Positions 2,618 to 28,144 of a DNA stretch of 64,000 bases are shown in pieces (position 1 is the first letter of the stretch; each line of letters begins with the position of its first letter). Location: the NCBI GenBank assembly GCA_049287005.1, contig JBAQEZ010000003.1, positions 393,745 to 457,744 on the forward strand, written 5' to 3'. Source of the DNA: Candidatus Moraniibacteriota bacterium. GTDB taxonomy: Bacteria > Patescibacteriota > Minisyncoccia > Moranbacterales > UBA1568. The notes under the pieces were generated by a model that was given only the letters and a program-made list of their open reading frames with translations, made no database searches and was not told where the DNA came from. A program made the position numbers and the translations under genes.

Positions 2618-2652
2618 AGGCCTCAACGGCAATCCGGGGAGGCTGTTTTTTT
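2618..2652 (+). terminator. rho-independent terminator after the M23 peptidase gene (GC hairpin plus T7)
   Basis: ggcctc..gaggctg hairpin followed by ttttttt. Confidence 0.5.
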
Positions 2653-2765
2653 ATGTATTCTTTGAAGGGATCGGTCACAAATAAATTTCCTGACGGACAC
2701 TTTTCGCGATCCCCCTCGTGAATGAAACAGTTCGTTTGCTGAGCGGATCACTCACCGTGTTCGTG

Positions 2766-5604: not shown

Positions 5605-6138
5605 TTAGAAGCCGCGCACCTGGATTTTCTTGGTCTTGGTCGTGTCGGCTTTGGGAAGGCGGATCGTGAGGATACCGTTTTTCAGCGACGCGTCCGCTTT
5701 TTCCGGCAGCACATCGACTGGCAGCAGGACGGAGCGGGAAAAGGATCCCCAGTAGCATTCCTGATAGTAGTAGTTTCCGTTCTCGACAATTTCTTCGTTT
5801 TTGCGCTCTCCTTTGACCGTGACCATATCGTTGTTGATCGACACATCGAGATCTTCCGGTTTGACACCGGCGATAGTGGATTTGATGACGATATCGTTTT
5901 CCGTCTGGTACACATCGATGGTGAGTTGTCCCTCGGCACCATCTTCGCTGGATTGGCTCTGCGCGGAAGCTTCCCAGGACTCTTCGTTTCGTGCCGCAAA
6001 AGCAGGAGAAGGTTCGCGCATCGAGATAGTCTCTTCTCTGTCTTCGTTATAGACCGGGACGGAATCGTTATAGCTGCCGCCTTCCATGTTTTTGGCACCG
6101 GTCAGACGTTCGAAAAAAGAGCTTTTTTGTTTTGTCAT
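5605..6138 (-). CDS. Hsp20/alpha-crystallin family small heat-shock protein
   Basis: ACD core (LTIDVYQTENDIVIK...GILTIRLPK), 177 aa. Confidence 0.85.
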   Translation of the reverse strand: MTKQKSSFFERLTGAKNMEGGSYNDSVPVYNEDREETISMREPSPAFAARNEESWEASAQSQSSEDGAEGQLTIDVYQTENDIVIKSTIAGVKPEDLDVSINNDMVTVKGERKNEEIVENGNYYYQECYWGSFSRSVLLPVDVLPEKADASLKNGILTIRLPKADTTKTKKIQVRGF

Positions 6139-6214
6139 AACAATAACCTTAACAAAGTTTAGATAATAATAGCACTTTCAGTATAGAGGATTTTGCGAAT
6201 GCTGACAAGTTCTG

Positions 6215-6730
6215 TTAGGCGGTCAGGAACAGGAGGATATTGTATACGAGATGGAGTGATACCGCGAGCGAGAGGAGCCGGAAGTTCCGTGAAGAAAATG
6301 TCTTGTCGGGTTCAGGGGAGGAGAAGAGGCAATACACGAAGAGTAGGCTGGTGCCGATGTGGAGGAAGAGTATTTTGAATATCGCAACAACAGGAAAGGC
6401 GGCGGTAGCTTGCGTAGAGAACGCGATTTCCAGCGAGGAGAACCCGATGCCGAAGAGCAGGGCCAAAAGAATGAAAATTGGAAACGCGTTTCTGCCGTTG
6501 CGAGGAGCATACGGTCGGTATCGGATCAGAAAAAGGAATTTCGAAAATTCTTCGATGAGAGCGAGGACGAGCAGCGTGATAAACGTCCGCAGCGAGAATA
6601 TGGTATCGAAAGCGAAGAATGGAAGAGTTGACGGGCTGGCAACGAACGGGATGCTGAGCGCCGCGAGCTCGAGGAGGAGCGCGAAACATCCGGCGAGCGC
6701 ACCGAAAATAATGATCGTGATGAATGGCAT
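6215..6730 (-). CDS. polytopic membrane protein, PrsW/CPBP-like intramembrane protease (putative)
   Basis: EExxK (EEFSK) and HxxxN (HLVYN) motifs in TM helices. Family assignment is tentative. Confidence 0.45.
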   Translation of the reverse strand: MPFITIIIFGALAGCFALLLELAALSIPFVASPSTLPFFAFDTIFSLRTFITLLVLALIEEFSKFLFLIRYRPYAPRNGRNAFPIFILLALLFGIGFSSLEIAFSTQATAAFPVVAIFKILFLHIGTSLLFVYCLFSSPEPDKTFSSRNFRLLSLAVSLHLVYNILLFLTA

Positions 6731-21089: not shown

Positions 21090-21499
21090 CAAAGAAGTGT
21101 GTAAAAATGAAACGTCCCACCCGAAATGTTTCTCGGGGAGGGACGTAGGCGACTTCAGTCTTCTTGGTCGACGTAGAGCCTTCAACAGGAAGGAGCATCC
21201 ATATATTGCGCGCGATATTTCCGTGGATGTTCCGTTCTGCCGCGCAGAGTACGTCGATATATCCCCGTACATCAGAAGGAGGGACAGAAAACCTAGCTTT
21301 CTCAAGCTTCCCAATTTTTTAGGAGGAGGGATGGCAGATCGCCTCTACTGCCACATAAACGGCTCTGCGTGAAAAACATCAAAAACTGAACTGGTATTAT
21401 TTTTATCAGAGAATGGGGGAAATGTCAATAAGATTCGCTTTCTTCCGGCGTCCGATTCCCGACGCGCGCCAAGCAGTCGGCTCACTCGCTTCGTTCATG

Positions 21500-21571
21500 T
21501 GTCCTCGCGTGGAATCGAACCACGATCTTCTCCTTCGGAGGGAGATGTCCTATCCATTGAACTACGAGGAC
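21500..21571 (-). tRNA. tRNA-Arg (anticodon CCG)
   Basis: Acceptor GTCCTCG/CGAGGAC, anticodon loop CTCCGAA, T-loop TTCGATT. Confidence 0.8.
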
Positions 21572-21929
21572 GTAACTTTCTTATACTAGCAACAAAAGCG
21601 TTTTTAGCAAAAAAGAATCCCGGAAAGATTCTTTTTTATTATCAGTGCGCTTGGCCCTCCTCCGCTCAAGCTTCGGACGGGCAAGCAGGAATCTCCCTCG
21701 ACTAAACCTTTGTCGACACAAAGGTTTGTCTGGGCACCGTAATAGTAGTGATGTGCCTGGCAGGCAGGAATCTGTCACAAGTAAATTTCCTGACGGAAAT
21801 TTCTCGCGACCCCGTCTCGCGGCACTCGCCTTGCCCTTTCGGGCAAACTCGTGCAACGCTCCGACTTTCGATTCCTGACGCACGCCAAGCAGTTGGCGTG
21901 CTCCAAGACAATTTCGCTTTGCTCAATTG

Positions 21930-22002
21930 TGCGCTTGGCAGGAATCGAACCTGCGACCCTCTGGACCGCAACCAGATGCTCTATCCACTGAGCTACAAGC
22001 GC
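21930..22002 (-). tRNA. tRNA-Arg (anticodon GCG; not the usual ACG)
   Basis: Acceptor GCGCTTG/CAAGCGC, perfect anticodon stem TCTGG/CCAGA, loop TTGCGGT. Confidence 0.75.
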
Positions 22003-22047
22003 AAAAACAAAATATGCTTTCCGTATGGATGCGGAAGGAAAGCACTA

Positions 22048-22569
22048 CTAAATATGCAGGAGTTTCTCCAATGTGTCAACTAATCCGGGCTGATGCTTCT
22101 CTTCGGGAATGAATTCATCGAGCGTATCGCGTAAGACATCGATATTGACGCCCATAGCAGGGATATGGACATAGGGGACAAGTTTGCCTTCGGTGCGGAT
22201 GCTTAGGATGTTTTCGAATGGAGGTTCTGTGTAAATGAAGAAAGATTCGAGGGTATCAAATGCGTAGAACTCGTTGCCGGCGATGATGCCTTTGGCCGTC
22301 ACCATGAAGGTAAGGACACGTGGTTCATGATAGAGCGAAAGATAGCCGACGACGCCGATCAAAATAAAAGTAATAGCCATCAGCGGGCTATTGGTATAGA
22401 GAGCATAGGCGATGATAGCGATCAGAAGAAGGGTGACAACAATAGTAGAGCGTGGCCCGAGTTCGAGCGGTTCATGCTCAGGAGCCTGCCAATAGAGAAG
22501 AACCTCACCGTAAGCGGAGGGGATGTTGTGTGGCTGTGGACTGAGTTCAGAAGAAAAATCTTGTTGCAT
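22048..22569 (-). CDS. hypothetical membrane protein (2 TM)
   Basis: ORF with hydrophobic helices (VVTLLLIAIIAYALY, ITFILIGVVGYLSLY). Confidence 0.4.
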   Translation of the reverse strand: MQQDFSSELSPQPHNIPSAYGEVLLYWQAPEHEPLELGPRSTIVVTLLLIAIIAYALYTNSPLMAITFILIGVVGYLSLYHEPRVLTFMVTAKGIIAGNEFYAFDTLESFFIYTEPPFENILSIRTEGKLVPYVHIPAMGVNIDVLRDTLDEFIPEEKHQPGLVDTLEKLLHI

Positions 22570-22706
22570 ATCGTGGAAACATTTATCTTTGTTTACTATA
22601 GCATATTTTTTCAAAAAAGGAGGTCCTTTTGCCCTCATAAAGAGTCTGTACAAAGTTCGCGTGGCTTGCTAGGATGAGATGGCAATAAATACGAATTTAC
22701 GATTAC

Positions 22707-22793
22707 GGAGAGATGGCCGAGCGGTTGAAGGCAACAGTCTTGAAAACTGTCGTACCCGAAAGGGTATCGTGAGTTCGAATCTCACTCTCTCCG
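22707..22793 (+). tRNA. tRNA-Ser (anticodon TGA), long variable arm
   Basis: Acceptor GGAGAGA/TCTCTCC, anticodon loop CTTGAAA, variable arm CGTACCCGAAAGGGTATC. Confidence 0.85.
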
Positions 22794-22852
22794 CAAATGA
22801 GTTTCAATGCGGTTATGAAGAAGAGAATGAATTTCAGCTTGAGGAAAATGTA

Positions 22853-23557
22853 ATGAGAAATTCTAGTGAAACAGTTGAAGTGGTGGTGATGGTTGGATAC
22901 TATGCCTCGGAATTGGGCGTAGAAATTACAAAGAAGGATGGATCTAAAATTCCGTCGCTTTATGGTGATGGGCATCACGTTTGGTGGGGGTCACAAAATT
23001 ATCCAGGTCGAATTCCAACTGGGCTCTGGACCGCCTATCGGACTCAAGCTGCTCAGATTATTTGGGCTTGTTGCGATAGCTATCTTTCGGATGGAATGTG
23101 TGAAGCAGAGTATATGCAAAAGTATGCGATTGATAGATTCGATATTTTACAGACTGATTTTCCGAGGCTGTTCGATAGCGCCGGATGGTTCAGGTCTAAG
23201 AATGATTTCGAGTCGTGGATTCGGGACATATCCGTTTTCGATAAAAAAAGCAGTACGACCCGTACGGTAATGGAGGAGGTAATAAAAATAATAAATGAGA
23301 AATTCGGTGATCGAACCATCAACATACATTTTGTTACATCAGCGAATCACGCGAGTCGTGTTCTTCGAGATGCGGCAGCGGCATTCTATGAGGGAGTTAT
23401 TCTTAACAAGGATGGTACTTCTCGAAATGTAGCAGAGCGGTTGCGAGGTAGCGCTATGGTAAATGTTGTTGTAGCAAAAACTTCTTACGGAGAAGGAAAT
23501 CCTATTCGTACCGTTGTGTACGATAACGGCACAGAAAGTTATCGATCGTGGGTCTAG
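22853..23557 (+). CDS. putative DUF218 (YdcF/SanA/ElyC-like) protein, low-GC
   Basis: IHFVTSANHASRV resembles the DUF218 VTSxxHxxR motif. RBS GAGGAAA before the ATG. About 43% GC against ~52% in the flanks. Confidence 0.4.
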   Translation: MRNSSETVEVVVMVGYYASELGVEITKKDGSKIPSLYGDGHHVWWGSQNYPGRIPTGLWTAYRTQAAQIIWACCDSYLSDGMCEAEYMQKYAIDRFDILQTDFPRLFDSAGWFRSKNDFESWIRDISVFDKKSSTTRTVMEEVIKIINEKFGDRTINIHFVTSANHASRVLRDAAAAFYEGVILNKDGTSRNVAERLRGSAMVNVVVAKTSYGEGNPIRTVVYDNGTESYRSWV

Positions 23558-23566
23558 AGATTTAGT

Positions 23567-24124
23567 TTGTTCAAAAGAGAGTCTATGCAAAAAATAGTTA
23601 TCGCCTCGAAGAATCCGGTGAAAATCAATGCCGCGCTGACTGGTTTTCAGAAGATGTTTCCTAGCGAACAATTTGAGATAGAGGGCATCTCTGTTTTTTC
23701 TGGTGTTTCAGATCAACCCCAGACTGATAGCGAGGCATTTGATGGAGCATTAAACAGGGCAGAGAATGCGAATAGAGAAAAACCAGATGCTGATTTTTGG
23801 GTGGGTATCGAGGGAGGAATTGAAATGAAGAATGGAGAAATGGAATGCTTTGCTTGGGTAGTAATCCGTTCGAAAGACAATAAACATGGAAAGGGAAGAA
23901 CAGGTACTTTTTTCTTACCGCCAGAAATTAGAGAGCTTGTTTTGGCAGGAGAGGAACTTGGCAAGGCCGATGATATTGTTTTCAAACGGAGCAATTCCAA
24001 AGAAAGCAATGGCGCGATCGGTATTTTGACCGGAGATGTGATCGATCGGACCAGTTATTATTTGGCGGCGGTGGTCTTCGCGCTGATTCCTTTCAAAAAT
24101 AGAGAGCTTTTTCCCCATCCATAG
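23567..24124 (+). CDS. yjjX: inosine/xanthosine triphosphatase (YjjX/DUF84 family non-canonical purine NTP phosphatase)
   Basis: Aligns by eye to E. coli YjjX (ASKNPVKINA...DFWVGIEGGIE...CFAWVVI...GAIGILTG). Confidence 0.7.
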   Translation: MFKRESMQKIVIASKNPVKINAALTGFQKMFPSEQFEIEGISVFSGVSDQPQTDSEAFDGALNRAENANREKPDADFWVGIEGGIEMKNGEMECFAWVVIRSKDNKHGKGRTGTFFLPPEIRELVLAGEELGKADDIVFKRSNSKESNGAIGILTGDVIDRTSYYLAAVVFALIPFKNRELFPHP

Positions 24125-24205
24125 CGGTGAGGCTTGTCCCGCCTTCTTTTTCGCGCTATACTGGAAAACCTCAGAGACTCTTAACTTGATATTGAATAAA
24201 AACAT

Positions 24206-24727
24206 ATGCAAAAGATGTCACTCTATACATTGGCGGTACCGATGACCATCAAGTCGCTCCAAAATCTGAAAGCCATGCTGGGCAAAGCCAAAGCTTTTGC
24301 CGATGAGAAAAAGATTGAAGAAACAGTATTACTCGAAGCCCGTTTGACTCTCGATCAGTATCCGTTCGTGAAACAGGTGCAGATCGCTTGCGACAATGCC
24401 AAAGGTACGGCGGCTCGTTTGGCGGGTGTGGAATCGCCAAAAATGGAAGACAATGAAAAAACACTCCTCGAACTGGAAGGGCGGATCGACAAAACCATCA
24501 CCTTCGTGCGCTCCCTCACCGAAGCGCAGTTCGCGGACAGCGAAGAGCGCAAAGTGCCGATTTACTTCATACCGGGAAAATATCTTTTGGGGTTTGAATA
24601 TGTGACAGAGATGGCTTTGCCCAATTTCTATTTTCATCTGACGACGGCCTATAGCATCTTGCGGCATCATGGTTTGGCTCTCGGCAAGGCGGACTTCATT
24701 GGCAGCGTTGATTTCAAAAGCGAATAA
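24206..24727 (+). CDS. DUF1993 domain protein
   Basis: SLYTLAVPMTIKSLQNLKAML...ALPNFYFHLTTAYSILRHHGLALGKADFIG matches the DUF1993 consensus. Confidence 0.65.
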   Translation: MQKMSLYTLAVPMTIKSLQNLKAMLGKAKAFADEKKIEETVLLEARLTLDQYPFVKQVQIACDNAKGTAARLAGVESPKMEDNEKTLLELEGRIDKTITFVRSLTEAQFADSEERKVPIYFIPGKYLLGFEYVTEMALPNFYFHLTTAYSILRHHGLALGKADFIGSVDFKSE

Positions 24728-24730
24728 TTT

Positions 24731-25660
24731 TTGCGTTCTATGGCAGCGGCTCTCTCCGTAAAACAGCTGAAAAAAATATATCCGAATGGAGTCGCGGCGC
24801 TCAAGGGGGTTGATTTGGCAGTGCCGGAAGGGGAATTTTTCGGTCTGCTCGGTCCCAATGGCGCCGGCAAGACGACGCTCATCGGCGTCGCTGTCGGTCT
24901 CGTCAACAAAACGAGCGGGACGGTAGAGATACTGGGGCACGATCTGGATACGGATACCAGCCTGGCCAGAGCGAGCGTGGGAGTCGTGCCGCAAGAATTC
25001 AACTTCAGCATCTTCGAGAAAGTGCAGAATATCGTGGTGGATCAGGCAGGGTATTACGGTATTCCGCGGAGCGTCGCATTGCCACGGGCGGAGAAGTATC
25101 TGAAACAGCTGGGTCTGTGGGAAAAAAGGAATTCTCCGGCGCGGATGCTCTCCGGCGGGATGAAACGGCGCCTTATGATCGTGCGCGCCCTCATTCATGA
25201 ACCGAAGCTGCTTATCTTGGACGAGCCGACAGCGGGCGTGGATATCGAACTGCGCCGTGAGATGTGGGTGTTTCTGAGGGACCTCAACGTGGCCGGTCGG
25301 ACGATTATTCTGACGACACATTATCTGGAAGAAGCGGAGCAGCTCTGCCGGAGCGTGGCCATCATCCATCAGGGGGAGATCGTCGCGCAGGGTCTCGTCA
25401 AAGATCTTTTGAGCCGGATGCACGTCGAGACATTCGTCTTCGATCTGGAAGCGCCGCTCTCTCCCGAGGTGGAAAAACTGCTGGCGAATTTCGGCGTGGA
25501 AAAGATCGATAGCCAAACCGTGGAAATGAGTCTCGGTCAAGGTGAGACGCTCAATGACGCTATCGAGGCGCTCAATCGTCTGGATATCCGGGTGAGGAGT
25601 ATGCGCAACAAAGCCAACCGCCTGGAAGAACTCTTTCTCCATTTAACGAAAAAGGTATGA
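24731..25660 (+). CDS. ABC transporter ATP-binding protein (ABC-2 type)
   Basis: Walker A GPNGAGKTT, signature LSGGMKRRL, Walker B LLILDEPT. Confidence 0.9.
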   Translation: MRSMAAALSVKQLKKIYPNGVAALKGVDLAVPEGEFFGLLGPNGAGKTTLIGVAVGLVNKTSGTVEILGHDLDTDTSLARASVGVVPQEFNFSIFEKVQNIVVDQAGYYGIPRSVALPRAEKYLKQLGLWEKRNSPARMLSGGMKRRLMIVRALIHEPKLLILDEPTAGVDIELRREMWVFLRDLNVAGRTIILTTHYLEEAEQLCRSVAIIHQGEIVAQGLVKDLLSRMHVETFVFDLEAPLSPEVEKLLANFGVEKIDSQTVEMSLGQGETLNDAIEALNRLDIRVRSMRNKANRLEELFLHLTKKV

Positions 25661-26430
25661 CGACCCAAGAGATGTGGATTGCCTATATGACGATCGTGCG
25701 CAAAGAAAGCGTGCGGTTTCTCCGTATCTGGCCGCAGACACTGCTGCCTTCGGTGATGACGACGACGCTCTACTATGTCGTGTTCGGTACCTTCATCGGG
25801 TCGCAGATCAAGGGTTTCGGCGATTTCAGCTATATCCAATTCATCGTGCCGGGTCTCGTCATGATGGCCGTGATCACCAATTCCTTTTCCAACGTCGCGG
25901 GATCGTTCTTCGGCGCCAAGTTTCAGAAGTCGATAGAAGAATTGCTCGTTTCGCCGATCCACCCGTCTCTCGTGGTGGCCGGCTATGTGACCGGAGGAGT
26001 ACTCCGGGGGATTTTCACGGGAGTTCTGGTGTTGGGCGTCTCGCTCTTTTTCACTCATTTGACAGTGCACAGCGTGCTCTTGACGGTGGTATTTATTTTT
26101 CTCACCTCTCTACTTTTTTCTTTGGCCGGACTGCTGAATGGCATCTATGCCAAAGATTTCGACGGAGTTTCCATCGTTCCGACCTTCGTGCTGACCCCGC
26201 TGACGTACCTCGGTGGCGTGTTTTATTCTATCAGTGCCTTGCCGCCCATCTGGCAGAAAGTGTCCGTATGGAACCCCATCCTCTATATGGTCAATGGTTT
26301 CCGTTACGGTTTCTTGGGCGTATCGGATGTCAGCGTCAGCGGCAGCCTCTTCATCCTTACGGGTTTGAGCGCGCTCCTCATTTTTGCCAATGTGTATCTT
26401 TTCCGAACCGGACGCGGTCTACGGACGTAG
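25657..26430 (+). CDS. ABC-2 family transporter permease
   Basis: Six predicted TM helices. Overlaps the ATPase stop by 4 nt (operon). Confidence 0.8.
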   Translation: MTTQEMWIAYMTIVRKESVRFLRIWPQTLLPSVMTTTLYYVVFGTFIGSQIKGFGDFSYIQFIVPGLVMMAVITNSFSNVAGSFFGAKFQKSIEELLVSPIHPSLVVAGYVTGGVLRGIFTGVLVLGVSLFFTHLTVHSVLLTVVFIFLTSLLFSLAGLLNGIYAKDFDGVSIVPTFVLTPLTYLGGVFYSISALPPIWQKVSVWNPILYMVNGFRYGFLGVSDVSVSGSLFILTGLSALLIFANVYLFRTGRGLRT

Positions 26431-26621
26431 ATTTGGCTCTTCTATTGCCCTTTTCTTGATTTCGTGCTACGGTAAGAACGTTGTAAGTTTTTCTTTCTGG
26501 AGTAACGCTCGACAGACAGAGGTTGCCCCTCGAATGTTCGTAGTAGGGCCAGGCAGAACTTACGTAAGTAGGTTCAAAGGAAAGGTCACCTTACACGGTA
26601 ATCAAGTTAGTAGATTCGAAT

Positions 26622-26966
26622 ATGGCAACCAAATTGTATGTTGGTGGCGTTTCCTACGGTACGACCGAGGATTCTTTGCAGGCAGCTTTTGCCCAAGCAG
26701 GGAGTGTCGTTTCTGCCAAGATCATCATCGACAAAATGACGGGTCGCTCACGCGGCTTCGCATTCGTCGAAATGGGTTCAGATGAAGATGCCCAAAAGGC
26801 TATCGCTCTCTGGAATGGCAAGGAACTCGACGGACGTACGCTTACGGTCAACGAAGCTCGTCCTATGGAAGAGCGTGCTCCTCGCACGGGTGGTGCTGCT
26901 GGTGGATTTCGTGGTGGAAACCGCGATTACAACGGTGGTGGCAACCAAGGCGGAAGCCGTTGGTAA
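26622..26966 (+). CDS. RRM-type glycine-rich RNA-binding protein
   Basis: RNP-2 LYVGGV and RNP-1 RGFAFVEM, with a Gly-rich tail. Preceded by a ~190-nt 5' leader. Confidence 0.85.
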   Translation: MATKLYVGGVSYGTTEDSLQAAFAQAGSVVSAKIIIDKMTGRSRGFAFVEMGSDEDAQKAIALWNGKELDGRTLTVNEARPMEERAPRTGGAAGGFRGGNRDYNGGGNQGGSRW

Positions 26967-27012
26967 GTGAACATCACAGACCGCTTGCGGTTTTGTGACG
27001 CAATCAACAAGA

Positions 27013-27040
27013 CAGCCCTGATTACTCAGGGCTGTTTTTT
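27013..27040. terminator. bidirectional rho-independent terminator (cagccctg-attact-cagggctg plus T6) between the RRM gene and tag
   Basis: 8-bp perfect stem with flanking A/T runs between convergent genes. Confidence 0.6.
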
Positions 27041-27631
27041 ATGAGCGTTTTTGTTCTTGATTATGTTTTTTACTTCATCGTATCTGAAACAATCAGTCGT
27101 ATGGTCATTTACCATTCCGGTGGCCTGCATAAAAGCGTAGCCGATAATAGGACCGAAGAATTGAAACCCGCGCGCTTTCAAATCCCGAGCCAAGTTTTCC
27201 GCTTCCTCGGTGTAGGCTGGTACATCCGAAGAAGAACGTCTGGCTTTATCAATAGCCGTGGGGCCAACAAACTGGGAAAGGTATTTGGCAAAGGAACCAT
27301 ACTCTTTTTGAATCTCCAAGAAAAGTCGGGCGTTGCTGATGGCCGCTTCAATCTTGAGCTTGTTTCTTACAATGGAGGAGTCGTGCAAAAGCCGATCGAT
27401 GTCATGCCTGGTGAAGCGCGCCACCTTTTCTGGATCAAAAGAAGCAAAAGCCTTGTGGTATGCCGCACGCTTTTTGAGGATGGTTTCCCAAGAGAGTCCC
27501 GCCTGAGCGCTTTCCAGGACGAGAAATTCGAACAGCCTGCGGTCGTCATAAACACGCACGCCCCATTCTTCATCGTGATATTTTTCGTAGAGCGCATTGT
27601 CCTTGGGCACCCACGCACAGCGTTTTTTCAT
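27026..27631 (-). CDS. tag: DNA-3-methyladenine glycosylase I
   Basis: EWGVPVYDDRRLFEFLVLESAQAGLSWETILKKR plus the C-terminal zinc-binding Cys/His pattern of Tag. Confidence 0.85.
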   Translation of the reverse strand: MKKRCAWVPKDNALYEKYHDEEWGVRVYDDRRLFEFLVLESAQAGLSWETILKKRAAYHKAFASFDPEKVARFTRHDIDRLLHDSSIVRNKLKIEAAISNARLFLEIQKEYGSFAKYLSQFVGPTAIDKARRSSSDVPAYTEEAENLARDLKARGFQFFGPIIGYAFMQATGMVNDHTTDCFRYDEVKNIIKNKNAHKKQP

Positions 27632-27731
27632 AGGCTTTTTTGATGTTGCTCCCATTTTATCATAGATAAAGGAGTCATCCTTGATTTTGCTTTGGAAAAT
27701 TGCTACTCTAAGATACGTGTCATGAAAATAA

Positions 27732-27818
27732 GGAGAGGTGGCCGAGCGGCTTAAGGCACCACACTGCTAACGTGGCGGGGGATAAAACCCCTCGAGAGTT
27801 CGAATCTCTCCCTCTCCG
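27732..27818 (+). tRNA. tRNA-Ser (anticodon GCT), long variable arm
   Basis: Acceptor GGAGAGG/CCTCTCC, anticodon loop CTGCTAA, variable arm CGGGGGATAAAACCCCTC. Confidence 0.85.
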
Positions 27819-27968
27819 CAGTGAACAAAGTGAACGTAGGAGAGGAGGAAGCCAACTGCTTGGCTTCCGAGAGAGATGAGAAAGGCGGAGTGATGTTTCG
27901 CGAGTACGCGAAACCGCGAGCCAGGGTCGTGGAAATTGTCGAGCGACGGCGAGGCAATTATCCCTGAC

Positions 27969-27986
27969 TGAATCTCCCTCTCCGCA
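27969..27986 (+). repeat. direct repeat of the tRNA-Ser(GCT) 3' end (att-like), ~150 nt downstream of the tRNA
   Basis: tgaatctccctctccgca here versus cgaatctctccctctccgca at 27801-27820. Confidence 0.6.
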
Positions 27987-28032
27987 CCAAAAAATACAGG
28001 GCCCCATTTAGGAGTCCTGTATTTTTTGGTGC
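27984..28032. repeat. 17-bp perfect inverted repeat gcaccaaaaaatacagg / cctgtattttttggtgc with a 15-nt loop
   Basis: Seen directly in the sequence. Could act as a bidirectional terminator or a recombination site. Confidence 0.6.
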
Positions 28033-28144
28033 GGCTTTGCCCGTTTTATGGCTCTTGTGATAGAATATATCCAGGAAAGAGACGGGAGGCTCTCTTTTCG
28101 CGTGTTGAATAGTAAACTTTAATTTTTTTTAAGGAGATACGGTT

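Follow-up and report, generated by a model that had tools for sequence, protein, structure and literature searches.

The hairpin with a CUGC loop that recurs behind tRNA genes in the window (the whole stretch of DNA analyzed, 64,000 nt) appears from its sequence to be one stem, P2, of a previously undescribed structured RNA module of approximately 165 nt that lies directly behind tRNA genes. The module is restricted mainly to CPR (Patescibacteria) bacteria. Our best explanation, held tentatively at a probability of about 0.35, is an intron-like RNA insert that is gained and lost and that may dock on the 3' strand of the tRNA and direct its release.

Exact matches to GCCRACTGCTTGGC were found three times in the window, at 21468-21481 (-), 21884-21897 (-), and 27851-27864 (+), with none expected and none present in 100 dinucleotide-preserving shuffles of the window. 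The coordinates and strands given for the three hairpins in the initial annotation were all confirmed. Each hairpin shares the strand of its tRNA and lies 17 nt [Arg(CCG)], 27 nt [Arg(GCG)], or 28 nt [Ser(GCT)] past it; therefore, the true spacing is 17 to 28 nt and not the 20 to 40 nt first claimed. The element had been described as a hairpin of 14 to 22 nt with different stem extensions, a view now replaced by that of an RNA of ~165 nt with five covarying helices, tRNA-specific arms, and a duplicated tRNA 3' end.

Comparison across copies established this predicted architecture, including covariation in RNA of the tRNA-sense strand and the host-specific arms. The module begins with an 11-nt 5' box (GARC-RAA-GYGA), a mini-hairpin with tandem G.A, 2 bp, and an RAA triloop, followed by a left arm that is complementary to the 3' strand of the tRNA acceptor. 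P2 comes next, its CUGC loop invariant even in copies whose entire stem differs, and then a right arm complementary to the T-stem 3' strand. The conserved core contains two hairpins and consists of GAAAG, Pa/Pb with a GGAG/GAG internal loop, a variable hairpin (P4), GGG, and helix P5, which terminates in UGAC. Usually the tRNA segment between the T-loop and the 3' end is then repeated (copy 2), ahead of the real terminator. The sequence G(T/C)GCGTC(A/G)GGAATCG, first reported as a flank common to copies, is in fact the right arm, which is specific to each tRNA and complements the T-loop and the 3' strand of the T-stem, and does not represent a conserved flank. The right arms of the two Arg copies are alike only because their T-arms are alike, and the Ser copy has its own version. 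No match to the module was found among Rfam families or in the literature, with ribozyme models (HDV-like and other), or with a group I intron model; tRNA finders and the Rfam tRNA model did not recognize it, and no dedicated gene was found among the neighboring protein genes.

The window, which derives from a Moranbacteria-like CPR bacterium, carries four copies, two of them intact (B and C) and two decayed (A and D), with the following features.

27732..27819, + strand: tRNA-Ser(GCT), host of copy C (ARAGORN; Rfam tRNA, 52 bits)
27823..27990, + strand: copy C, complete (covariance model R1, 138.5 bits, E = 3e-47, model positions 1-165)
27823..27833, + strand: copy C 5' box, GAACAAAGTGA (mini-hairpin; box positions 3 and 9 covary)
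27839..27845, + strand: copy C left arm, GGAGAGG, complement of the tRNA-Ser acceptor 3' strand CCTCTCC (read from the sequence; cognate/noncognate duplex test)
27847..27868, + strand: copy C P2, 9 bp, CUGC loop at 27856-27859 (the hairpin first annotated)
27869..27877, + strand: copy C right arm, GAGAGAGAT, complement of T-loop positions 59-60 and the T-stem 3' strand
27878..27969, + strand: copy C conserved core, GAAAG to P5/UGAC (covariation, mutual information)
27970..27986, + strand: copy 2 of copy C, GAATCTCCCTCTCCGCA, tRNA-Ser from T-loop to 3' end, 2 nt shorter than copy 1
27982..28034, + strand: terminator-like A-tract/hairpin/T-tract after copy C (inverted repeat, 24-nt arms, 92% complementary)
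21929..22002, - strand: tRNA-Arg(GCG), host of copy B (ARAGORN; Rfam tRNA)
21752..21924, - strand: copy B, complete (R1, 131.3 bits, E = 1e-44)
Parts of copy B, - strand: box 21914-21924, left-arm region 21902-21913, P2 21880-21901, right arm 21867-21879, copy 2 ~21755-21772
21640..21751, - strand: older partial remnants behind copy B (direct repeat family D2, 21680-21706 / 21759-21785; sequence reading)
21609..21637, - strand: terminator-like A6-GAATC/GATTC-T6 hairpin closing the Arg(GCG) unit (perfect 11-nt inverted repeat)
21499..21571, - strand: tRNA-Arg(CCG), host of copy A (ARAGORN; Rfam tRNA)
21403..21496, - strand: copy A, degenerate (R1, 28.7 bits, E = 6e-9)
2652..2762, - strand: copy D, decayed, behind tRNA-Arg(TCG) at 2765-2839 (R1, 18.3 bits, E = 2.5e-5; absent from the initial annotation)

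The final ~20 nt of tRNA-Ser(GCT), from the T-loop to the 3' end, constitute copy 1 of the repeat, and an exact 14-nt direct repeat links 27807-27820 to 27973-27986. The 5' arm of the hairpin at 27982..28034 takes in the end of copy 2; this hairpin was not picked up in a stricter terminator consensus scan. Compared with shuffles, the folds of copies C and B gave z values of -4.3 and -5.8, respectively. A promoter-like TTGACA-17-CATATT (22079-22051) precedes tRNA-Arg(GCG), and the right arm of copy B forms a perfect 11-nt inverted repeat with the tRNA T-arm (21867-77 / 21939-49). The remnants behind copy B comprise a second P5-like hairpin and AGATTCCTGC (21680-21706), then an acceptor 3' end, GCCAAGCGCAC (21646-21656). 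Copy A retains the box, P2, and right arm, with the left arm and most of the core deleted, and shares a 38-nt block (84% identical) with copy B. At L056, a Moranbacteria locus, the tRNA orthologous to the host of copy D has an intact copy scoring 144 bits.

Using pattern and covariance-model searches, more than 180 further copies were identified beyond the window. Their hosts are about 30 tRNA species (anticodons), and nearly all of the copies come from CPR genomes or from metagenomes of groundwater or sediment. In the genome collection, 67 of 104 model matches begin at most 25 nt past a same-strand tRNA, with a mode of 2 to 4 nt, and 8 more come after another module copy. This placement was replicated in independent metagenome loci (80 of 112 assessable copies), and together the two sets support the original proposal of a dedicated tRNA-trailer element as opposed to a chance motif. 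A check was in effect made of whether random intergenic DNA has the motif just as often, or other tRNA trailers lack it, and the finding survived.

In the first set of copies, 92.8% of cells were paired, compared with 70.5% when shuffled and 33 to 41% when slid, and 25 of 28 pairs had changed on both sides; the independent set gave 93.9% versus 72.4%, with changes on both sides in 26 of 28 pairs. Helix 2 of the five covarying helices is the right arm. P2 was paired in 99.2% of cells, with seven to eight of its nine pairs changed on both sides. Box positions 3 and 9 were A-U in 47 copies, G-C in 25, and A-C in 2 (71 and 43 in the independent set, with 4 G.U and 2 A.C), and this pair was recovered blind by mutual information as 100% canonical. 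G.U exceeded A.C (64 versus 24; p = 2e-5), and therefore it is RNA of the sense strand that folds. A gene for a small peptide, in which GGAG...AUG would supply the ribosome-binding site and start codon and UGAC the stop codon, was also tested and is not supported, its likelihood being negligible: a 24-codon frame is common to copy C, L016, L021, and L056, but ATG occupies that site in only 32 of 57 copies, frames range from 1 to 33 codons or run off the end, UGAC is the first stop in only 5, and hairpin length does not vary in multiples of three.

The arms match the tRNA they follow. Duplexes of the arms with cognate versus noncognate tRNAs gave -13.0 versus -7.8 and -14.3 versus -9.9 kcal/mol, and in 37 copies the cognate tRNA was among the best 3 of 71 (p = 7e-32). 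At G.U positions of the tRNA, the arm strictly complements the 3' strand in six instances and copies the 5' strand in two. The spare tRNA 3' end starts at T-loop position ~57 and is an exact repeat of at least 10 nt in 43 of 74 copies and at least 12 nt in 54 of 120; in the window, the functional 3' end is copy 1, not copy 2. Folds of full transcripts favored pairing of the arms with the 3' strand of the tRNA in 29 of 36 cases; minimum-energy folds can also join the 5' half of the tRNA to copy 2, in which case the module becomes an insert in the T-loop. The arms apparently prefer copy 1 to copy 2, a preference also expected under neutral decay because selection on the tRNA keeps copy 1 constant. 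The discriminator region is typically unpaired with purines opposite, in an internal loop that varies in size and sequence, and the helix is uninterrupted in 18% of copies; such a variable loop is unlike a fixed ribozyme active site and counts against our best explanation. CCA is encoded in 7 of 118 tRNAs with the element and 41 of 221 without it (p = 0.001); this depletion, the unpaired discriminator region, and the full-transcript folds hint at a role in processing. In some variants a terminator-like hairpin replaces the box, so the body may often escape cotranscription.

Among near-identical genomes, presence or absence was unit-precise and bounded by the tRNA 3'-end repeat. Exactly one unit of 172 nt, with a 21-nt repeat at its boundaries, separates L101 and L118 from L125 and L077, within flanks that are 97 to 100% identical; loss rather than gain could explain the L101/L125 polymorphism. 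L125 also contains a decayed copy, E2. Intact copies stand in front of older, decayed ones, tandem arrays and chimeras occur (for example, L001), and at L034 the same site is used by an unrelated 900-nt insert. The element is dispensable for processing, since decayed copies are tolerated and numerous tRNAs of these genomes mature with no copy behind them.

These patterns bear on whether the module instead benefits its host, as a vertically inherited and ancient CPR system for 3'-end maturation or quality control of CCA-less tRNAs that coevolves with each tRNA, the cores of paralogous copies being homogenized by gene conversion. We regard this as possible but unlikely. Distant lineages do carry the element on the same tRNA species (e.g., Arg-TCG, Leu-GAG, Ser-GGA, and Trp), copy B shares its core subtype with L017, likewise Arg-GCG, and there is orthology and synteny with L056; the depletion of encoded CCA, purifying selection on the structure across phyla, and the absence of a mobility gene agree with it too. 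However, only a minority of tRNAs bear the element, copies A, D, and E2 decayed without apparent harm, and neither intact copies ahead of decayed ones nor arrays such as L001 fit such inheritance, nor does the core of copy C (Ser-GCT), which is nearly identical to Arg-TCG cores in relatives. Rather doubtful is a separate small RNA gene, its body cut out by RNase P and RNase Z like a downstream operon tRNA and acting in trans as a mini-tRNA mimic with the acceptor and T-stem identity of the parent tRNA. The arms together with copy 2 would make up a minihelix of acceptor and T-stem, P2 standing where a tRNA has its D and anticodon arms, the T-like helix covaries, and the left arm pairs with copy 2 at 7 of 7 positions in 18 of 67 copies (4.1 expected), a perfect acceptor-like stem four times commoner than expected; box-less variants place a terminator-like hairpin between tRNA and body and a second terminator after copy 2, an arrangement that would suit an independent gene. 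That stem is nevertheless perfect in only about a quarter, many copies that otherwise score highly, both intact window copies among them, have a degenerate copy 2 or none, tRNA detection tools miss the body, and a trans-acting RNA has no obvious need to match its neighbor.

Integrative elements that target tRNA genes leave att repeats, including cis-mobilizable remnants, and the module resembles these: its insert lies between direct repeats of the 3' part of the tRNA, the tRNA is restored, and successive remnants pile up behind a single tRNA. It is improbable, however, that the copies are attL/attR relics or a cis-mobilizable mini-element from phages or integrative elements that insert at tRNA 3' ends and bring a replacement 3' end. 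An original-looking terminator past the distal repeat, the remnants behind copy B, and the insert at L034 are in keeping with that origin, but the unit is only about 170 nt, one conserved core at about 30 tRNA species is beyond any single integrase specificity, selected RNA structure with strong covariation and a G.U bias is not expected of att DNA, no integrase was found nearby, and no matches were found in the viral contigs searched. A terminator or attenuator of the tRNA unit is still less probable; a stable GC-rich hairpin does come right after the tRNA, and some variants exchange the box for a terminator-like hairpin, but P2 has no U-tract, as first noted, and the earlier statement that the hairpin is not an intrinsic terminator is supported; the terminator-like hairpins sit past the duplicated tRNA 3' end, and termination needs neither 165 nt of conserved covarying structure nor tRNA-matched arms.

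Several known systems share parts of this arrangement. Downstream tRNAs of bacterial operons direct processing, as do mascRNA at the MALAT1 3' end and tRNAs in the mitochondrial "tRNA punctuation" model; similarly, a downstream acceptor/T-stem mimic could recruit RNase P or RNase Z to the precursor, but the mimic here is made of complements to the neighboring tRNA's own 3' strand, with a large conserved domain for the T-loop and the invariant CUGC hairpin for the D/anticodon arms. As in group I introns, with their P1/internal guide, a guide close to where the insert starts would base-pair with the last part of the upstream "exon", the loop of the resulting hairpin would hold the insert 5' end, and copies invade, decay, and reinvade; the module differs in size and core, in lying in the trailer and not the anticodon loop, and in its hairpin-split guide spanning about 20 nt. 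Archaea have noncanonical tRNA introns at T-loop positions and circularly permuted tRNA genes, and the tRNA 3' strand, box, and arms resemble a circularly permuted mini-tRNA, but the hosts here are bacteria, copy 1 is the functional one in the window, and no bulge-helix-bulge motif was seen in the module. The H/ACA pocket is similar in topology only, two hairpin-separated guides on one continuous target strand giving a three-way junction; the module is without an ACA or H box and an unpaired target uridine, and we know of no Cbf5-type partner in bacteria. Theta ribozymes, minimal HDV-like double pseudoknots of about 50 to 70 nt from gut Caudoviricetes, adjoin phage tRNAs, CCA being encoded in 4.5% of these, and were postulated to process tRNA 3' trailers (PMC10879173). 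Both are structured RNAs directly 3' of tRNA genes that rarely encode CCA (6% for the CPR module), but the latter is ~165 nt and chromosomal, and has tRNA-specific arms and a duplicated tRNA 3' end.

Under the intron-like reading, a largely selfish insert would be lodged between tRNA gene and terminator and transcribed together with the tRNA. At the DNA level, units would enter and leave by recombination across the 17- to 21-nt tRNA 3'-end repeat, regenerating an intact tRNA. At the RNA level, the arms split by P2 would mimic the topology of the tRNA 5' side (acceptor 5' strand, A, a G...C-closed helix, G, and T-stem 5' strand) and pair with the tRNA 3' strand or its spare copy in a tRNA-shaped three-way junction, the discriminator and first trailer bases usually lying in a small purine-lined internal loop. 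The precursor would be cut at this junction, either with the core as ribozyme or by RNase P/Z-type enzymes reading the tRNA mimic, freeing the tRNA for CCA addition, and with the spare copy the module could close on itself. While a copy is resident, selection for harmless self-removal would then keep its fold intact, and the two roles first proposed, a 3'-processing signal and the footprint of a repeat targeting tRNA 3' flanks, may both hold at once.

ARAGORN identified nine tRNA genes in the window, and the hairpins that the initial annotation had placed behind three of them were found at the same coordinates and on the same strands. The motif GCCRACTGCTTGGC has three exact matches in the window, whereas none of 100 dinucleotide-preserving shuffles contained an exact match, ruling out a chance motif. 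Each hairpin, designated P2, lies on the strand of its own tRNA, 17, 27, or 28 nt past the tRNA end. As had been claimed, P2 is not a canonical intrinsic terminator: no U-tract follows it in any window copy, and a consensus terminator scan did not call it. Hairpins with A/T tracts occur farther downstream, past a spare copy of the tRNA 3' end (designated copy 2, with the host tRNA's own 3' portion as copy 1).

All three trailers open, a few bases from the tRNA and on the tRNA strand, with GARCRAAGYGA. Those of tRNA-Arg(CCG) (copy A) and tRNA-Arg(GCG) (copy B) have a 38-nt block in common, and CCGCGAG.C.GGGTCG is found further into the trailers of copy B and of the copy behind tRNA-Ser(GCT) (copy C). 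The copy B trailer also contains an 11-nt perfect inverted copy of the T-arm of its own tRNA, and an exact repeat of the last 14 nt of tRNA-Ser(GCT) lies 166 nt downstream of it, directly followed by an A-tract/hairpin/T-tract structure with 24-nt arms. Copies B and C fold into the same architecture (z = -5.8 and -4.3, respectively, against shuffled sequence) and are intact; copy A is decayed, as is a fourth copy, which was absent from the initial annotation:

2652-2762 (-): copy D, decayed, behind tRNA-Arg(TCG) (2765-2839)

Behind copy B, older partial 3' pieces are followed by an original-looking acceptor end and a terminator. A promoter-like sequence, TTGACA-18-AAAAAT, is located within decayed copy A at 21399-21428 (-) and may drive the downstream region or be a chance match.

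On the RNA, the module starts from the tRNA, a 2- to 6-nt linker, and the box GARC-RAA-GYGA, followed by the complement of the linker, a left arm complementary to the 3' strand of the acceptor stem, and an A. P2, a 9-bp stem closed by G-C and carrying a CUGC loop, is succeeded by a G and by a right arm complementary to the 3' strand of the T-stem and to T-loop positions 59-60, often to the whole T-loop. GAA-AG then leads into helices Pa and Pb around a GGAG/GAG internal loop and a variable hairpin, P4, and the distal part consists of GGG and a helix, P5, with an inner hairpin and UGAC at the end. Approximately half of the module copies carry copy 2, which extends from T-loop position ~57 to the tRNA 3' end (43/74 in the first set; 54/120 among the metagenome matches listed). 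The succession of arm, A, helix (closed by G...C), G, and arm has the topology of the 5' side of a tRNA, with P2 replacing the D and anticodon arms and the core at the place of the T-loop. A minority of copies have an ordinary hairpin, often terminator-like, instead of the box. In diverged copies the P2 stem can be wholly altered (e.g., GGAAUGUGC/GCACAUUCC or CCCCUCAA/UUGAGGGG) with the CUGC loop unchanged. A kissing interaction of this loop with GCAG in the P4 loop was ruled out, as GCAG is present in just 8 of 57 copies.

Using RNAalifold on 30 units, 28 pairs were predicted, 21 of which show compensatory changes. In a 57-copy alignment, which was fitted to the covariance model of the module and is therefore biased towards it, 92.8% of cells were paired, compared with 70.5% in shuffles and 33 to 41% when partners were slid; both sides had changed in 25 of the 28 pairs, with a covariation score of 0.60 versus 0.19 in shuffles and at most 0.13 in slid controls. 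An independent alignment of 80 metagenome copies, fitted and biased in the same way, gave 93.9% versus 72.4% paired, 26 of 28 pairs changed on both sides, and a score of 0.49 (0.15 in shuffles, at most 0.09 when slid). A structure-blind mutual-information scan ranked the same pairs at the top and added a pair within the box, the P4 stem, and extra P5 pairs. By the test of compensatory changes beyond shuffled and shifted controls, the module is a structured noncoding RNA under purifying selection. G.U combinations exceed A.C combinations (64 versus 24; p = 2e-5); thus, the folding strand is the tRNA-sense strand, i.e., a transcript and not a DNA cruciform. Noncanonical covariation (A/G, G/G, C/U) was also seen between columns 70 and 219 of alignment A5, the base preceding Pa and the base following its 3' strand, and could reflect a junction contact or a subfamily signal.

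To identify relatives, a composite pattern of P2 and the box separated by a variable gap was used, for which fewer than one chance match is expected. Seventy loci were found in a 185,579-species genome collection, nearly all in metagenome-assembled genomes (MAGs) of Patescibacteria/CPR, including Saccharibacteria, Parcubacteria, Moranbacteria, Vogelbacteria, Falkowbacteria, Paceibacteria, and others. Viral contigs gave 0 matches to the pattern, ruling out a phage origin, and the metagenomes yielded at least 120, from groundwater and sediment; these sit on ordinary contigs of 1 to 550 kb, which rules out a small circular or multimeric replicon. Locus L056 of a Candidatus Moranbacteria genome shares synteny with the window, with flanking genes 74 to 85% identical and tRNA-Arg(TCG) identical, which places the window in a CPR bacterium. 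Flanking genes of two loci labelled Bdellovibrionales, L016 and L034, also align to the Moranbacteria-like window, at 70 to 76% identity, so mis-binning or mislabelling of CPR contigs is probable for both. In a third locus with this label, L062, the match to the window is limited to the element itself. The module was additionally observed on MAG contigs labelled Gammaproteobacteria (L014) and Enterobacteriaceae (L040), and the taxonomic labels of all five loci look doubtful. A shorter copy (69 bits) at 3298-3397 of L002, on a 100-kb contig labelled Betaproteobacteria (JAJDOG010000040.1), has arms matching the tRNA-SeC that precedes it and represents either true spread beyond CPR or a binning or labelling problem.

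The module is a conserved, co-linear RNA associated with tRNA 3' ends. In the first set, 67 of 104 model matches start no more than 25 nt past a same-strand tRNA, with a mode of 2 to 4 nt; the remainder includes 8 directly behind another copy and 3 at locus edges, and is otherwise mostly 30 to 300 nt downstream of a same-strand tRNA, with small unrelated ORFs in the gap between the tRNA and the displaced element. Among the matches listed for the independent metagenome set, 80 of 112 assessable copies start within the same 25 nt. Host tRNAs comprise approximately 30 anticodon species.

Comparisons of related loci revealed gain or loss of the module as a unit. Between L101 and L118 on one side and L125 and L077 on the other, whose background is 97 to 100% identical, the difference amounts to exactly one 172-nt unit with the 21-nt repeat GAATCCCACCCTCTCCGCAAC as its boundary. 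This extra unit is intact and, being only ~90% identical to the resident truncated copy and carrying a compensatory change in P2, did not arise as a fresh duplication. Behind tRNA-Arg(TCG), which is orthologous between the two, L056 has an intact copy and the window a decayed one. Near-identical cores occur at different tRNAs, as in copy C, at tRNA-Ser(GCT), and L021 and L056, at tRNA-Arg(TCG). In a chimera at L001 (91-280), the left arm fits the upstream tRNA-Thr and copy 2 is the 3' end of a tRNA-Leu, which implies that elements at different tRNAs recombined. In L034, ~900 nt (5808-6720), including a 166-amino-acid ORF (6006-6506), separate tRNA-Arg(TCG) from the element, with one more decayed tRNA 3'-end copy ahead of the element, so inserts other than the module also use this tRNA 3'-end site. 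Clean indels of 82 to 212 nt were also observed between CPR contigs that are >99% identical: 1950-2136 and 2137-2348 of L098 (versus L009, L165, and L143), and 827-967 of L123, 2317-2398 of L029, and 8055-8136 of L145 (each versus L109). None of these matches the model, so they are not this element and may represent small units of another kind, mobile or repeated.

The arms are complementary to the target tRNA 3' end, of which copy 2 is a spare copy. Duplexes of the arms with the 3' end of their own tRNA average -13.0 and -14.3 kcal/mol, compared with -7.8 and -9.9 with other tRNAs, and for 37 copies the cognate tRNA was among the three best of 71 (p = 7e-32). At acceptor G.U positions the arm is strictly Watson-Crick to the 3' strand in 6 cases versus 2, a small sample that only leans against an origin of the arms as copies of the tRNA 5' strand by tandem duplication. 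Of 36 minimum-energy folds of transcripts containing tRNA and element, 29 have the left arm paired with the 3' strand of the tRNA itself. Closure of the arms on copy 2 is possible as well: a perfect 7-bp acceptor-like stem was found in 18/67 copies versus 4.1 expected and in 15/55 versus 3.7. A better fit of the arms to copy 1 than to copy 2 was withdrawn as proof of selection for tRNA pairing, since neutral decay of copy 2 yields the same asymmetry. The helix beside the box is usually just 2 bp long; a small internal loop, which is purine-lined on the arm side and contains the discriminator and the first trailer bases, separates it from the arm helix. As just 18% of copies have an uninterrupted helix of at least 10 pairs here, a universal long "toehold" helix running from the box into the acceptor strand was ruled out. 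CCA is encoded in 6% of host tRNAs versus 19% of tRNAs without the element (p = 0.001). In approximately half of the tRNAs of these genomes, the discriminator is directly followed by CA (CAA or CAG) instead of CCA (62% with and 49% without the element, across all loci and the window tRNAs), a regularity of CPR tRNA trailers.

Known kinds of element were then compared with the module. A cmscan search of 21200-28100 with the 4,227 families of Rfam 15, using permissive filters and E values up to 5, identified no family matching the element, nor did a search at gathering thresholds. ARAGORN and RF00005 called just the nine true tRNAs and nothing over the element at E values up to 5, arguing against a tRNA or tRNA pseudogene. 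HDV-like/theta, hammerhead, twister, twister-sister, pistol, hatchet, and hairpin ribozymes had no Rfam match at E values up to 5, and the junction nucleotides (A, G), as read from the sequence, do not match a hammerhead core. A group I intron was rejected, as RF00028 did not match, five helices in ~165 nt are unlike its core, and the element sits in the trailer. MITE or REP-type repeats do not fit: REP-type palindromes are dispersed between genes with no locus specificity, whereas these copies are tied to tRNA 3' ends, and in a MITE the inverted repeat is between its own ends and the target duplication is short and of fixed length, whereas here the insert forms its inverted repeat with the target tRNA and the duplication comprises 17 to 21 nt or more of tRNA sequence. 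A direct repeat of the tRNA 3' portion does flank the insert (14 nt, exact, in copy C), as in att remnants and cis-mobilizable elements, but an integrase att remnant is contradicted by the lack of a recombinase near the copies, the lack of viral-contig matches, and the presence of one core at ~30 anticodon species. The copies share no conserved start, frame, and stop, as a small protein gene would. Att relics, a terminator, and a peptide gene, three separate explanations, were considered very improbable even when taken together. No description of the module was found in the searchable full-text literature, including by its literal sequence. As each known kind tested failed on a defining feature, the module was filed as a new kind within Rfam 15 and this literature, its kind being judged from sequence features.

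The window neighbours of the element are housekeeping genes (an aminotransferase, a Tag glycosylase, a SurA-like protein, and an ABC transporter). Clustering of 788 flanking ORFs revealed just ordinary tRNA-neighbourhood genes and no associated recombinase, reverse transcriptase, or nuclease. An ORF family resembling LAGLIDADG-type endonucleases was observed ~500 nt or less from the element at 5 of 70 loci (e.g., 5036-5950 of L057); as rRNA and other introns are common in CPR, these ORFs may be unrelated to it.

The most economical reading, to which we assign a probability of roughly 0.35, is that the module is an intron-like insert. The tRNA 3'-end repeat would mediate its turnover at the DNA level, and the RNA fold would be kept because, through it, the module's own core or RNase P/Z reading the tRNA mimic could resolve the precursor where tRNA and trailer meet. 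Resolution at this point is suggested by the depletion of encoded CCA, the exposed discriminator, and the precedent of theta ribozymes, which are located behind phage tRNAs (PMC10879173). Against an intron-like insert, cleavage at the junction is a deduction from sequence, the junction loop is not fixed, many tRNAs manage without the module, and a terminator-like hairpin precedes the body in some variants. A purely host-beneficial version of the module is unlikely, and a separate tRNA-like small RNA, which the arrangement of the arms around P2 calls to mind, is more doubtful still. It is similarly improbable that the module belongs to a new RNA class, catalytic or guide-bearing, in the form of a selfish element lacking any protein, which would find a specific tRNA 3' end via its CUGC-split arms, cut and perhaps rejoin the tRNA/trailer junction, and spread among CPR tRNA genes. 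The tRNA and a unit-length RNA would then be released, the ends of the latter drawn close to each other by the box hairpin, and spread would run through the tRNA 3'-end repeat. Such an RNA would correspond, in bacteria and anchored at tRNAs, to mobile introns or to retrozyme or viroid-like units that bear ribozymes.

A large part of bacterial diversity belongs to CPR/Patescibacteria, whose RNA biology is, to our knowledge, nearly unexplored. The module is an abundant, deeply conserved, multicopy structured RNA at their tRNA genes with no counterpart in Rfam or the searchable literature. It provides a sharp sequence marker for CPR contigs, as for L016 and L034, labelled Bdellovibrionales and syntenic with Moranbacteria, and the duplicated tRNA 3' ends call for caution in annotating genomes that carry it. 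Should the module prove to be a selfish insert, it would be a mobile element that has no protein and needs its target-matching arms rewritten for each tRNA. If it directs tRNA 3'-end release, minimal genomes would have a new route to mature tRNAs, and the module might also define a new ribozyme class.
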